This document shows, one piece after another, positions 1,147 through 6,459 of a DNA stretch of 8,058 nucleotides. Source of the DNA: a virus. Its lineage: Duplodnaviria > Heunggongvirae > Uroviricota > Caudoviricetes. The notes below the pieces were generated by a model, which was not told where the DNA came from, made no database searches, and saw only the letters and a program-made list of their open reading frames with translations. The position numbers and the translations under genes are program-made. The stretch's first letter is position 1, and each line of letters begins with the position of its first letter. The stretch is taken from positions 1-8,058 of IMG/VR virus record IMGVR_UViG_2740892103_000005; one strand, given 5' to 3'.

Positions 1147-2373
1147 TCAACCTTTCAATGCTTCAATCGTATTATTAAGTCGACGCAACAGGTCGTCGTA
1201 CGTCAATATGTCTATCATGTTGGCGTACTTACGTTTGATTATCTCAAAATCAAGCAACTGACCGTCGGTCATGTTACCGTTCGCTATCTGATCGCGCCCG
1301 ACAATGATGATGGCTTTTGGGTTAGATATACGAATACACATTCCCGCTGGCAGAGAATTCTTGTAGGCATTCGTAAGCTCTTTTTCACCCTTAACACCCC
1401 ATTTAGATAAATGAAAAATATACTTTTCAGCCTGCATAATACCGCCGCTAAGTTCTGATGTAGGAATATAGTTATCGCGATAGGGCGTCTTGCGAAGGAT
1501 CTTATCATCAAACGGCTTTTTGACTTCGATGATATCAAGGTTGCCGTTTGCATCCACCAGTGCAATGTCTATAAACCGATTTGTTTTAGCCGAAGGATTA
1601 GAGTAATAGTCGAAAATTTTAACCTTCTCGAGGACCTTGATATATTTTGGAAAAAGTAATGTGATGAAGGGTATCATCAGGCTCTGCCAGTCATCTTCAG
1701 ACAAGTTAGTTTTGTTATTCAACGCATCCTGGATAATGTCTCTTATGAGTGTATATTTCTCAATTTCGAGCTTATTTAAAACTTCTAAATCCAGTTTGTC
1801 GGTTTTTCTGATCACTGTTTTTCTGTTTAGGTAATGTTCATACCGTTCGCGAGCATCTTTCATACCATCAAGATAACCTGCGAGAATAGCGTGAACCCTT
1901 GCATTAGCATAGCGATCCAGTTCCCCTGTGTTGGGGAATTTACTTTGCAACTCCTGGAATACGCTTTTTGGTATAGCTTCCGGCTTATCTCCTCCGATGA
2001 TGATGGGATTAGTGTGTTCGAGTAGTTTTGAAAGCCGACCAAAAATGGAGACGTTGCGTTCTGACGCAAATACTTTCCTTTCAAGCTTGATGGACTTATG
2101 TATAAGGACATCTCGATTAATGCTTAGAATCCGTCCCGGAACTGTTATGTATTCATTATTAAGCGTGCCAAAATTAAAGGAATATTCGTAATCATTAAAA
2201 TCCTGAACGGTTGACGGTGGGTTTCTCAAATCCTGGAGTTGAAAGTTAAAAATTCGTGAAATGCATACTGTTTGAAATTTATTTAAACTCTCCCAAACCC
2301 AAATTATTTGTTCTCCGCTGTCACCGTCGTAAGTCATAACAACGTCATTTGATACAAAGCTGAACTGTAACAT
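1147..2373 (-). CDS. Cargo protein in the G-FI hotspot: putative PD-(D/E)xK nuclease, Shedu/DUF4263-like C-terminal domain with an unassigned N-terminal domain; candidate anti-phage defence protein
   Basis: 408-aa ORF with AGAGGAAAT Shine-Dalgarno 4-8 nt upstream of ATG at 2373. Strongly AT-rich versus flanking phage genes (by eye, not computed). Residues ~265-285 read RFIDIALVDANGNLDIIEVKKP, a D...(D/E)xK core. Downstream AIIIVGRD and a C-terminal ILTYDDLLRRL resemble what I recall of Shedu (DUF4263) conserved blocks. Family assignment is from memory and motifs, not a search. Confidence 0.5.
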   Translation of the reverse strand: MLQFSFVSNDVVMTYDGDSGEQIIWVWESLNKFQTVCISRIFNFQLQDLRNPPSTVQDFNDYEYSFNFGTLNNEYITVPGRILSINRDVLIHKSIKLERKVFASERNVSIFGRLSKLLEHTNPIIIGGDKPEAIPKSVFQELQSKFPNTGELDRYANARVHAILAGYLDGMKDARERYEHYLNRKTVIRKTDKLDLEVLNKLEIEKYTLIRDIIQDALNNKTNLSEDDWQSLMIPFITLLFPKYIKVLEKVKIFDYYSNPSAKTNRFIDIALVDANGNLDIIEVKKPFDDKILRKTPYRDNYIPTSELSGGIMQAEKYIFHLSKWGVKGEKELTNAYKNSLPAGMCIRISNPKAIIIVGRDQIANGNMTDGQLLDFEIIKRKYANMIDILTYDDLLRRLNNTIEALKG

Positions 2374-2480
2374 ATTTCCTCTGATTGATAAAACGTCCCA
2401 TATTTTCCTGATAATTGCATTAGAGATCCGGCATGAACTGATGCCCGCCTATAATGACTAACTCTGCAATCACTGTCTCG

Positions 2481-2509
2481 ATATTATGTTCATCCCCCAT
2501 TTTATCCAA
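2481..2509 (-). promoter_or_regulatory. Putative sigma70 promoter for the cargo gene
   Basis: Minus strand reads TTGGAT-17 bp-TAATAT (plus-strand atccaa 2504-2509, atatta 2481-2486), about 110 bp upstream of the cargo ATG and on the gene side of the IS2 insertion. Sequence pattern only. Confidence 0.3.
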
Positions 2510-2593: not shown

Positions 2594-2634
2594 TGGATTT
2601 GCCCCTATATTTCCAGACATCTGTTATCACTTAA
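2594..2634. repeat. IS2 right terminal inverted repeat (IRR)
   Basis: Imperfect inverted repeat partner of 3884-3924; shared ...CCAGACA...TATCACTTAA core. Confidence 0.85.
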
Positions 2635-3510
2635 CCCATTACAGGCCCGCTGCCGCAGATATTCCCGTGGCGAGCGATAACCCAGCGCACTATGCGGATG
2701 CCATTCGTTATAATGCTCGAACGCCTCTGCAAGGTTCTTTGCTGCCGTTAACCCGTCTGGTTTGGGCATGATACTTATGTAGTCACGCTTTATCGTTTTC
2801 ACGAAGCTCTCTGCTATTCCGTTACTCTCCGGACTCCGCACCGCCGTGTTCTTCGGTTCAAGTCCCAACATCCGGGCGAACTGGCGTGTTTCATTAGCCC
2901 GGTAGCATGAACCATTATCCGTCAGCCACTCCACTGGAGACGACGGAAGATCGTTGCCGAAGCGGCGTTCCACCGCTCCCAGCATGACGTCCTGTACTGT
3001 TTCACTGTTGAAGCCGCCGGTAGTCACCGCCCAGTGCAGTGCCTCACGATCACAGCAGTCCAGCGCGAACGTGACACGCAGTCTCTCTCCGTTATCACAG
3101 CAGAACTCGAACCCGTCAGAGCACCATCGCTGATTGCTTTCTTTCACGGCCACTCTGCCTGTATGTGCCCGTTTCGATGGCGGTACAGCAGGTTTTCGCT
3201 CAAGCAACAGCGCATTCTGGCGCATGATCCGGTAAACACGTTTGGCATTGATCGCAGGCATACCATCAAGTTCTGCCTGTCTGCGAAGCAGCGTCCATAC
3301 CCGACGATAACCATACGTGGGCAGCTCTCCGATAACATGGTGTATACGGAGAAGCACATCCGTATCATCAGTGTGACGACTGCGGCGGCCATCCATCCAG
3401 TCATCGGTTCGTCTGAGAATGACGTGCAACTGCGCACGCGACACCCGGAGACAACGGCTGACTAAGCTTACTCCCCATCCCCGGGCAATAAGGGCGCGTG
3501 CGCTATCCAC
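2605..3510 (-). CDS. insD: IS2 transposase OrfB (InsD), DDE integrase-like catalytic part; expressed as InsCD fusion by -1 frameshift
   Basis: 301-aa ORF (track) beginning (V/M)[29 protein letters not shown]..., recognised as IS2 InsD. Overlaps the insC 3' end in the -1 frame. Confidence 0.92.
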
Positions 3511-3833
3511 TTTTTTGCCCGTCCATATTCAACGGCTTCTTTGAGGAGTTCATTTTCCATCGTTTTCTTGCCGAGCAGGCGCTGGAGTTCTTTAATCTGC
3601 TTCATGGCGGCAGCAAGTTCAGAGGCAGGAACAACCTGTTCTCCGGCGGCGACAGCAGTAAGACTTCCTTCCTGGTATTGCTTACGCCAGAGAAATAACT
3701 GGCTGGCTGCTACACCATGTTGCCGGGCAACGAGGGAGACCGTCATCCCCGGTTCAAAGCTCTGCTGAACAATTGTGATCTTTTCCTGTGTGGTACGCCG
3801 TCTGCGTTTCTCCGGCCCTAAGACATCAATCAT
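3468..3833 (-). CDS. insC: IS2 OrfA (InsC), helix-turn-helix transposase N-terminal protein / regulator
   Basis: Track ORF 3468-3878 trimmed to the internal ATG at 3833, giving [19 protein letters not shown]..., the InsC N-terminus as I recall it. The upstream extension would lie inside the terminal inverted repeat. Confidence 0.9.
3510..3517 (-). other. Programmed -1 ribosomal frameshift slippery site (A AAA AAG) at the insC/insD overlap
   Basis: Minus strand reads GGGCAAAAAAGTGG within the 3468-3510 overlap of the two ORFs, the arrangement typical of IS3-family elements. Confidence 0.7.
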
Positions 3834-3883
3834 CTGTTCTCCAATGACTAGTCTAAAAACTAGTATTAAGACTATCACTTATT

Positions 3884-3924
3884 TAAGTGATACTGGTTGT
3901 CTGGAGATTCAGGGGGCCAGTCTA
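3884..3924. repeat. IS2 left terminal inverted repeat (IRL)
   Basis: See IRR feature; the reverse complement of 3884-3924 aligns with 2594-2634. Confidence 0.85.
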
Positions 3925-3929
3925 GGTAC
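3925..3929. repeat. IS2 target-site duplication, copy 2 (GGTAC)
   Basis: Identical to 2589-2593. Confidence 0.9.
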
Positions 3930-3999
3930 AGAGCAGACTGTCAGATTAAGTTTTACTCTGTGCCATAGATACGTTAGCTCACTCCAGATATCATACAAC

Positions 4000-4527
4000 T
4001 TATTGCGGTATTTCCGGCCATTCAGGATTTGCAGGATCCACACGGCTGACCAGAACGCTGTAGCGTTCCCATGACTCCAGTCGTGCGCGCTCCTCATCCG
4101 TCGCCATATTCAGCCTGACGGCGCGTTCCAGCGGCTGGATAACGCTTTCCGCTTCGGAAAGTAACGCGGCCTTTTGTGATTCGGCCTGTTGTTGCTGTTC
4201 GTCTGCCGTATAAATCCGCTTAATCACGGCACCATCCTTAAACATCCATTTACCTGAGTCATCAGCACGTCGGTTGGCGGTAATATCAGGAACCTCGACA
4301 ACGCTAAAACCTTCAGGGTTAAGCGTTGAAGCATCTCTGGTGATGCCGACAATTATATTATTCTCGTCGTAAACAATCTTTATCGTGTCCTCCTGAAAAT
4401 TATTTACTTCCTCATACCAGTTTTTTCCCTCTTCGGACCATAACCAGATAACATCAAAATTTTTTGTCAGTTGATATTGGGCAACAGTTTTTGGATTACC
4501 CGCAATAATATTTTTTAAATGCTGCAT
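4000..4527 (-). CDS. G: Tail fibre assembly protein (P2 gpG-like chaperone)
   Basis: 175-aa [43 protein letters not shown]...[30 protein letters not shown], recognised as P2 G / Tfa family. Starts 3 nt after the tail fibre stop. Confidence 0.9.
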
Positions 4528-4530
4528 AAA

Positions 4531-6459
4531 TTACACCTGTGCGACGTTATACCATGTTCCATTGATGTATTTTTGTATTGGTCTGAATACTGCGGGGTCA
4601 TCACCATCGACTTCACCGACAATACCAAGCCCGGTAATTACGTGCCCTGCTTTCTCATACATCACACCTTTTTTCATAGTCTGAACAACACGTGTGCCCA
4701 GGCGAATATCTCGTACATAGCGAGAATCCGATTCATCTTTGGTATATGCACCAACATCTCCCGCAGAGGGTTTGCGGGTTGTGGTGTAAAACTCTGACCA
4801 GTCAGCCTCAAATCCATAACCATCACGCGCTGAACGATAATAAATACCGCCGTTCTTATAATTCACACGGAACTGTACGGCAGGGCAACTCCCCTCGCTC
4901 ATATTGAAATGGAGGATTAATGTCGATGCGCCACCAATATTTGCTTGATAGACCCCGCTATTCCAGTTCCAGCCAACAGCTTTATCATTTCCGACAGTGC
5001 TTCCTGTTTTCCCTAAAGCAAATGCAGGCTGCTGGTTTTTCGTGTTGTAGTCTCGTCGCCAGCCAGGAGCATAAGCATCACCATGATTAATATAAGTGAA
5101 TTGAGCGTTAGTGGTGCCGCCTCCGGTGGAAGTGCTTGGTGTTGTTACACGGATGGTCATGGCACCTTTATTACCCATAACCTCAATAACGCAACCTGCA
5201 AGATGAATAGTTCCACAGCCAGTATCGGTAATAATTTTATTATTGCCGTATGACCATGAACATTTGCACATCCAGTACGGATGATTAAATGCACCACGGG
5301 AATCCAGCCATTCAATAAACTGAGCGGTTGTCCAGTTTCCGGCTTCAGTGCTCAAAGCGCCGCTATAAGCACGACAGGCACCGATATTTTTCGTGAAGGT
5401 ATCCTTTCCCGGAATATCCGCACCGTTCTGATCTTTCTGAAGACGTTTTTCAGCATTGTCATAGGCAGACTTCACTGCTTTTGGTGTTGCGGCCAGCGTT
5501 TCAGAATCACTGTTGGTGGCGCTACTGAGCTGGACAAGGCCTTTTCGCGCCGTGGTGGCATCCTGCGCAGTGTATTTCCCGTTAGCAAGGTCATACGCTG
5601 TCTTAACCGCCTTTGGCGTTGCTGCAAGCGTTTCAGAATCGCTGTTGGTGGCGCTACTGAGCTGGACAAGACCTTTTCGCGCTGTGGTGGCGTCCTGTGC
5701 AGTGTATTTCCCGTTAGCAAGGTCATATGCTGCCTTTACCGCTTTTGGTGTAGCGGCGAGCGTTTCAGACGTGCTGTTGGTGGCGCTACTGAGCTGGACA
5801 AGGCCTTTTCGCGCTGTGGTGGCATCCTGCGCAGTGTATTTCCCGTTAGCAAGATCATACGCGGCCTTTACCGCTTTCGGCGTTGCGGCCAGTGTTTCAG
5901 ACGTGCTGTTGATCGCACTGCTTAACTGAGTAAAACCTTTTGCGGTCAGCGAGGCGTCCGGGTGACGTCGTGACTGTTCATGCTCTGCAATTTTGTCATC
6001 AACGTAATCCTGCGTCGCCATCACCGTTGTGGTGTCAATGGTCAGCGCCACTGAGGCCACACTGCTGACGATGATGACCATGCGACAGGTCTGCGAACGC
6101 CCTGAGCCTTCGGCAAGAGCTGGCTTATAACTTTCGGCCATGTTCGCCACGGCAATTAATGTTCCCGCATCATCGTACAGGCCAAGCTCACGCATCCAGA
6201 AACCGCCCACCTCCGGCGGAATAACCAGCTCTGCGATAATATAATTACTGTTTCGTTTGTCCTGGCTGATTTTGTTCAGCGCATGTCGCCAGACTTCATG
6301 GATAAGCCCGGTCTGTCCGGCATCCGGGACAGGCAATTTACCACCGCCATCCCCGACGGCCATCGTGGTAATGTTGACCTTCCGCCCTCCCGGCGCGGTT
6401 GCCGCTGCCAGCTTTGCTGCACCGGCAGTGGTGATAACGGTTCTGAATTTTGTGCTCAT
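4531..6459 (-). CDS. H: Tail fibre protein (P2 gpH-like) with internal tandem repeats and a distal receptor-binding domain
   Basis: 642-aa ORF with N-terminus MSTKFRTVITTAGAAKLAAATAPGGRKVNITTMAVGDGGGKLPVPDAGQTGLIHEVWRHALNK..., recognised as P2 H. GAGGA Shine-Dalgarno upstream of ATG at 6459. Confidence 0.9.
   Translation of the reverse strand: MSTKFRTVITTAGAAKLAAATAPGGRKVNITTMAVGDGGGKLPVPDAGQTGLIHEVWRHALNKISQDKRNSNYIIAELVIPPEVGGFWMRELGLYDDAGTLIAVANMAESYKPALAEGSGRSQTCRMVIIVSSVASVALTIDTTTVMATQDYVDDKIAEHEQSRRHPDASLTAKGFTQLSSAINSTSETLAATPKAVKAAYDLANGKYTAQDATTARKGLVQLSSATNSTSETLAATPKAVKAAYDLANGKYTAQDATTARKGLVQLSSATNSDSETLAATPKAVKTAYDLANGKYTAQDATTARKGLVQLSSATNSDSETLAATPKAVKSAYDNAEKRLQKDQNGADIPGKDTFTKNIGACRAYSGALSTEAGNWTTAQFIEWLDSRGAFNHPYWMCKCSWSYGNNKIITDTGCGTIHLAGCVIEVMGNKGAMTIRVTTPSTSTGGGTTNAQFTYINHGDAYAPGWRRDYNTKNQQPAFALGKTGSTVGNDKAVGWNWNSGVYQANIGGASTLILHFNMSEGSCPAVQFRVNYKNGGIYYRSARDGYGFEADWSEFYTTTRKPSAGDVGAYTKDESDSRYVRDIRLGTRVVQTMKKGVMYEKAGHVITGLGIVGEVDGDDPAVFRPIQKYINGTWYNVAQV
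5470..5935. repeat. Tandem ~120-bp (40-aa) in-frame repeats inside tail fibre gene H, ~3.7 copies
   Basis: Protein repeat unit LSSATNS(T/D)SETLAATPKAVK(A/T/S)AYDLANGKYTAQDATTARKGLVQ occurs 3 times plus a partial fourth. DNA copies are about 90% identical with period 120 bp. The antisense ORFs in the track (5281-5925, 5513-5929) show the same periodicity. Confidence 0.85.

Follow-up and report, generated by a model that had tools for sequence, protein, structure and literature searches.

The type I Shedu nuclease EcSduA of Escherichia coli KTE10 is the closest described relative of the protein considered here, and was characterized by Loeff, Walter, Rosalen and Jinek, first on bioRxiv in 2023 (Loeff et al., 10.1101/2023.08.10.552762) and later in Cell 188:721 (2025) (cited in PMC12904381). 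Two cryo-EM structures (8PS4 and 8PS5) and a crystal structure of residues 1-188 (8PS6) are available, and the polypeptide is divided into an N-terminal domain (1-145), described as being without structural homologues, a helical linker extending to residue 188 or 194, and a nuclease domain (195-408) (10.1101/2023.08.10.552762). EcSduA assembles as a tetramer, a dimer of dimers whose N-terminal domains form two clamps, and in the DNA-bound cryo-EM structure a double-stranded DNA end lies inside the clamp, where continuous B-form DNA would clash; the scissile phosphate is about 12 Å from the catalytic centre (10.1101/2023.08.10.552762). The published KD for a 40-bp duplex, by fluorescence polarization, is about 12 nM. 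Expressed from a plasmid, the protein cuts the plating of T2 and T6, the phages against which it is strong within a six-phage panel, by a factor of more than 30,000 with no abortive infection, and it lowers transformation by linear fragments while leaving transformation by circular plasmid unaffected. Mutational data show that the catalytic residues are needed for defence, which is also lost in the W25A mutant. Toxicity is seen when residues 195-408 or 146-408 are expressed by themselves, whereas residues 1-145 or 1-188 alone are harmless. In T6 escapers, uvsW is the only gene with shared mutations (10.1101/2023.08.10.552762), which fits an attack on linear intermediates of recombination-dependent replication. 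A 2026 review gives the same account of the mechanism (PMC12904381).

Two further bodies of work bear on the present locus. Shedu systems have been reported to occur in the Z/fun locus of phage P2 (10.1101/2023.08.10.552762); they go unmentioned in the main texts of Rousset et al. (2022), which concerns the old/tin locus, and of a 2026 NAR paper on P2/P4 hotspots. The Shedu protein of Bacillus cereus has been classed as "Type 1A," with N-terminal domains of the sPC4/Whirly type, in a scheme that runs over classes N1-N59 and Types 1A-1X (Gu et al., 2023). Here, we examine an IMG/VR virus record (IMGVR_UViG_2740892103_000005) over a window of 8,058 nucleotides, a term that denotes the whole stretch of DNA analyzed, and we focus on the N-terminal region of a nuclease gene that an initial annotation, made from the sequence alone, had put forward as a possibly novel sensor or regulatory domain.

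Identity of the Nuclease Gene

The gene, sduA, is a clean and uninterrupted frame of 408 codons on the minus strand, as seen in the list of open reading frames and their translations (Table 1). The initial annotation had assigned positions 1609-2373 to the first 255 residues, and in this it was accurate: the translation of that segment on the minus strand runs over residues 1-255 and begins MLQFSFVSNDVVMTYDGDSGEQ. A full-length sequence search of the PDB matched the window protein to the EcSduA chains of 8PS4 and 8PS5, deposited under the name "Shedu effector protein," at 407 of 408 positions (E 1e-274), the sole difference from 8PS4 being E119 in place of the D119 of the deposited chain. The 191-residue chain of 8PS6, which holds the N-terminal region 1-188, is identical at 187 of 188 positions, and a 408-residue protein in the public databases, P0018, is 100% identical, E119 included. 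Two PADLOC SduA models, PDLC04067 (E 1e-219) and PDLC00388 (E 4e-171), span residues 1-407 from end to end; an NCBIfam scan of the whole 408-residue protein gave no match. Every residue mutated in the EcSduA study is present, namely W25, R106, K116, R154, Y181, E226, Q230, Y256, K263, D269, E283, K285 and Q314.

Length and layout also agree with a type I system. At 408 residues, with about 194 of them ahead of the nuclease domain, the protein stands apart from the nuclease-only type II proteins of about 254 residues, and it is encoded as a single gene whose neighbours in the window are phage tail genes and an IS2 element; in IS-free prophages it lies alone between G and FI. Because the PDB match extends to 407 of 408 residues over the full length, we identify the window protein as the EcSduA of Loeff et al. 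Judged from sequence, positions 1609-2373 almost certainly represent the first 255 residues of this anti-phage nuclease, a type I Shedu protein whose gene is cargo of a P2-like prophage at the Z/fun site, and no evidence from the window contradicts the assignment to EcSduA.

Table 1. Features of the window around sduA, with positions counted from the first letter of the window.
Feature	Position	Strand	Remarks
Tail sheath FI, 5' part	860-3	(-)	Pfam Phage_sheath_1, Gp18_domIII_N; synteny; downstream neighbour of the cargo site
sduA	1147..2373	(-)	Complete 408-residue Shedu nuclease, E119 variant of EcSduA; coordinates include the stop codon at the 1147 end
DUF4263 / SduA_C PD-(D/E)xK nuclease domain	1150..1791	(-)	Codons 195-408; holds E226, Q230, D269, E283, K285, Q314
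Alpha-helical linker, sensor to nuclease	1792..1938	(-)	Codons 146-194; published map; patch 2 DNA-contact residues R154 and Y181
N-terminal DNA-end-sensing domain	1939..2373	(-)	Codons 1-145; two copies form a clamp; holds W25, R106, K116
Predicted sduA promoter	2480..2509	(-)	AJ512677 annotation mapped by blastn, +/-1 nt owing to one gap in the alignment; -35 at ~2503-2508, -10 at ~2480-2485
IS2 (1331 bp, IS3 family)	2594..3924	(-)	Context, not Shedu; orfA 3878-3468, orfB 3510-2605; Pfam HTH_Tnp_1, rve
Tail fibre assembly G	4527-4000	(-)	Pfam Caudo_TAP, E 3e-36; synteny with strain 20A24; upstream neighbour of the cargo site
Tail fibre H	6459-4531	(-)	Pfam Phage_tail_fib, Phage_fiber_2
Tail protein I	7000-6470	(-)	Pfam Tail_P2_I
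Baseplate J	7901-6993	(-)	Pfam Baseplate_J

The near-identity to EcSduA bears directly on the suggestion that the region may define a new specificity variant. It is exceedingly improbable that this is a new sensor variant with a specificity unlike that of characterized Shedu proteins, even though type I Shedu proteins as a class have very diverse N-terminal domains and the one encoded here has no Pfam model and is unrelated to that of the B. cereus protein. The region is the characterized EcSduA one, and the single change falls at a naturally variable position, 119, outside the residues mutated in the published study. The claim of novelty consequently falls, because EcSduA has been characterized, with solved structures (8PS4, 8PS5 and 8PS6), and is identical to the window protein at 407 of 408 positions over the full length; near-identity to a characterized protein, which the initial annotation had itself named as counting against its proposal, is what is found.

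Organization of the N-Terminal Region

The first 255 residues had been treated as one domain carrying no recognizable motif, a description that stands in part. No Walker A pattern occurs in residues 1-255, and the most hydrophobic stretch of 19 residues reaches a Kyte-Doolittle mean of only 1.2, so that there is no clear hydrophobic segment; the absence of a Walker motif and of a transmembrane segment had been correctly noted. In a Pfam search at E<=1, SduA_C (PF14082) alone matches the protein, over residues 224-396 (E 3.1e-33; 115.6 bits, the cut-off being 27), and residues 1-223 are without any model. The lack of a recognizable motif therefore holds for Pfam over residues 1-223 and for NCBIfam, but not for the PADLOC SduA models and 8PS6, which do recognize the region. 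The reported lack of a catalytic signature is wrong for the last 30 residues, since SduA_C begins at residue 224 and both E226 and Q230 lie within 1-255. Nor is the segment a single domain: it takes in the sensor (1-145), the linker (146-~194) and, from the nuclease, the initial ~60 residues, and residue 255 marks no boundary.

An AlphaFold model of residues 1-190, built on an alignment of 47 homologues, has a mean pLDDT of 82.5; within residues 1-145 the majority of 10-residue blocks reach 83-96, and linker helices are predicted at 153-165 and 173-189. This N-terminal fold has no Pfam family and no solved structural relative besides EcSduA. The original observation is thus partly confirmed, in that there is neither a general-purpose family model nor another fold relative, but its boundary was misplaced and catalytic residues were included within it.

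Conservation and Distribution of the EcSduA Type

The residues of the active site are conserved across the family. E226, D269, E283, K285 and Q314 are invariant in 62 divergent homologues, and Q230 is kept in 61 of these. W25, in the N-terminal domain, is retained in 46/48 close and 53/62 distant homologues, and R106 in all 48 close homologues and 40 of the 62 distant ones. Residue 119, which follows the DNA-contact residue K116 by three positions, varies across the family; the 48 close homologues have E (32), D (7), N (5) or G (4) at this position, and the D119 form occurs in the prophage of strain 20A24.

An exhaustive HMMER search with residues 1-190 returned 439 representatives of 50%-identity clusters at E<=1e-3, 251 of them at E<=1e-10, and the best 150 matches are proteins of no more than 468 residues with the domain N-terminal or nearly so. 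SduA_C was present in every one of 62 full-length divergent representatives sampled, none of which has a further convincing domain, and no fusion of the N-terminal domain to another effector was seen among these or among the best 150 HMMER matches. A full-length search yielded 1773 clusters at E<=1e-10, and the architecture of about 408 residues recurs at 60-75% identity in Pseudomonas, Aquitalea, Janthinobacterium, Alcaligenes, Sinorhizobium, Pectobacterium and other Proteobacteria. A word-indexed homologue search with residues 1-192 alone gave only 17 matches, mostly fragments, and is uninformative on distribution. Within E. coli, the gene is found in 53 of 5426 complete genomes, each copy chromosomal and at least 99% identical. 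Judged by these homologues, the EcSduA type is no private variant but a Shedu subfamily that is widespread and well conserved.

Proposed Mechanism of DNA-End Sensing

With one residue separating the window protein from D119 EcSduA (99.75% identity), the published mechanism may be carried over by identity, and we infer that the protein would bind free double-stranded DNA ends as a homotetramer and nick about 13-14 nt from the 5' end. Four nuclease domains would form the core of the tetramer, and the N-terminal domains would pair on each side into a clamp of ~17 Å, too narrow for continuous B-form DNA, that would admit only a free double-stranded end, with W25 stabilizing that end. Binding of the end would then guide the duplex along a channel of basic character (R106/K116, R154/Y181 and Y256/K263) over an active site, where the 5' strand would be nicked at the distance given above. 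Circular host and plasmid DNA would be spared, while linear phage DNA and the recombination-dependent replication intermediates of T-even phages would be attacked. The nuclease would be toxic when deprived of its N-terminal domain, so that this domain would serve both as sensor and as restraint. The earlier guess of a sensory or regulatory role was accordingly a good one, published experiments having established that EcSduA's N-terminal domain senses DNA ends and restrains the nuclease, and the structural comparison and truncation-toxicity experiments that had been proposed alongside it are already in print for EcSduA.

End recognition alone leaves unexplained how host DNA ends are spared and why heterologous Shedu is toxic, and the N-terminal domain might have an extra role, such as the docking of a phage-encoded trigger or inhibitor, that could explain the phage specificity of EcSduA. 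Anti-Shedu proteins are indeed expected by Loeff et al. (10.1101/2023.08.10.552762), and there is no other solved fold relative to constrain the functions of the domain. Nonetheless, the mutations shared by T6 escapers fall only in uvsW and not in a candidate trigger gene, and the domain is fused only to SduA_C in the 62 divergent full-length representatives (62/62), and we consider such a role improbable. DNA-end sensing combined with restraint of the nuclease remains the reading that we adopt.

The Prophage Locus and Its Cargo Slot

All genes of the window lie on the minus strand in the order J, I, H, G, [IS2], sduA, FI. A syntenic P2-like prophage in strain 20A24, free of the IS, carries a gene labelled "Shedu immune nuclease family protein" beside one labelled as a phage tail sheath protein. 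GC content is 37-42% across sduA as against 54-60% in the flanking phage structural genes, as expected for acquired cargo. By blastn, the record AJ512677 ("P2-EC31 proviral Z-region") is 99.5-100% identical to the window over 831-2593 and 3925-4029. We place the gene in Z/fun, the cargo slot of a P2-like phage between G and FI, because the description of AJ512677, the statement of the EcSduA authors on the Z/fun locus and the gene order of P2 all point there. The annotation of the sduA locus in AJ512677 is out of date. Its ORF1 (454-1542, "putative lysogenic conversion protein") measures 1089 nt, or 362 codons, as compared with the 408-codon protein of solved structure.

Several repeated elements were observed in and around the slot. 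A hairpin element of ~32 nt (TCYGCTTTTGG..AGCAGACTGTCWGATT) flanks the cassette as two inverted copies, at ~2581-2593 continued at 3925-3943 and at ~1052-1083, and both copies fall within features that AJ512677 labels "left/right inverted repeat." The right copy scores as terminator-like downstream of sduA (1077-1054, minus strand). These flanking hairpins may be terminators, or they may be recombination boundaries for the swapping of cargo. A separate, strong and GC-rich terminator-like hairpin (GGGCGGGCGAGTTGCCCGCCT, then TTTCTTT) lies at 965-985 on the minus strand, in the interval from the sduA cassette to the beginning of FI, and the P2 late promoter for FI would be expected just downstream of it. 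Farther away, the tail fibre gene H (4531-6459, minus strand) contains four tandem units of ~132 bp at 5452-5944, matched by four Phage_fiber_2 domains in Pfam; the encoded protein repeats "...TAKGFTQLSSA.NSTSETLAATPKAVKAAYDLANGKYTAQDAT...", and the self-matches are 82-89% identical at offsets of ~132 or 264 bp.

The IS2 Insertion Upstream of sduA

When the window is aligned with the IS-free prophage and with P2-EC31, exactly 1331 bp remain unmatched and the flanking alignments overlap by 5 bp; the insert, a complete IS2, is bounded by a target duplication of 5 bp, GGTAC (2589-2593 and 3925-3929). Elements annotated as "IS3-like element IS2 family transposase" match it at 99.8% identity. It is placed upstream of sduA, 220 bp from the start codon, and follows the stop codon of G by 75 bp; both genes run in its orientation. 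The element landed exactly in the loop (GGTAC) of the left hairpin copy. An IS at this site is absent from all 5426 complete E. coli genomes searched, the best coverage (83%) being that of the window minus the IS, and the insertion is therefore probably recent. The annotated sduA promoter is kept between IS2 and the start codon; a simple consensus scan of the minus strand did not recover this AJ512677-annotated promoter.

An element of 1331 bp only 220 bp ahead of the start codon, probably inserted recently (0/5426 complete E. coli genomes have an IS in place), might have silenced or misregulated a known EcSduA gene and left a functionally inert copy. Against this, the sduA reading frame is intact, the annotated promoter between IS2 and the ATG has been retained, and the insertion spares both the coding sequence and the neighbouring structural genes; an inert copy is unlikely, and we treat the gene as an intact EcSduA allele. 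There is likewise a small chance that either IS2, in the hairpin loop of the cassette, alters sduA expression, or E119 subtly changes the binding of DNA ends. Were either effect real, it would add only a small detail of regulation or of allelic variation to a characterized system.

Comparison with Known Shedu Systems

As a discovery, the region carries little weight: the structure of the N-terminal domain, its sensing of DNA ends, its restraint of the nuclease, the phenotypes of its truncations and its home in P2 Z/fun have all been published. A missing Pfam model is not the same as missing knowledge. What is gained is a firm annotation, as the E119 allele of EcSduA, carried by a P2-like prophage that has probably acquired its IS2 recently, together with a corrected domain map (1-145 sensor, 146-~194 linker and 195-408 nuclease).

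Set against described N-terminal domains of Shedu proteins, that of the window is unrelated to the B. cereus type and the same as that of EcSduA in 8PS6, so that the comparison that had been suggested as a check bears out a difference from the former only. The B. cereus protein (8TI8, 8TI9 and 8TIA) shares the DUF4263 core, the family profile matching 8TI8 over positions 172-394 (E 9e-13). No relation of the N-terminal domains was found, the profile matching 8TI8 only from position 172 and 8TI9 only from position 208; because only the linker and nuclease region is matched, we regard the two N-terminal domains as unrelated. The B. cereus N-terminal domain likewise restrains its nuclease, as in EcSduA.

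The cassette of the window occupies exactly the P2 Z/fun cargo slot, has a low GC content and is bordered by short hairpin elements that are repeated; IS2 is an addition to the slot in the window. The corresponding region of P2-EC31 (AJ512677) is 99.5% identical over 1763 nt, covering the gene, the annotated promoter and the flanking repeats; this record, which dates from around 2002, before Shedu was recognized, lacks IS2 and aligns to the window with one indel. EcSduA of KTE10 resembles the window protein in its 408 residues, its three-part architecture, its functional residues and its Z/fun location in P2-like prophages, whereas the window locus differs from it in having E119 for D119 and an IS2 element 220 bp upstream.
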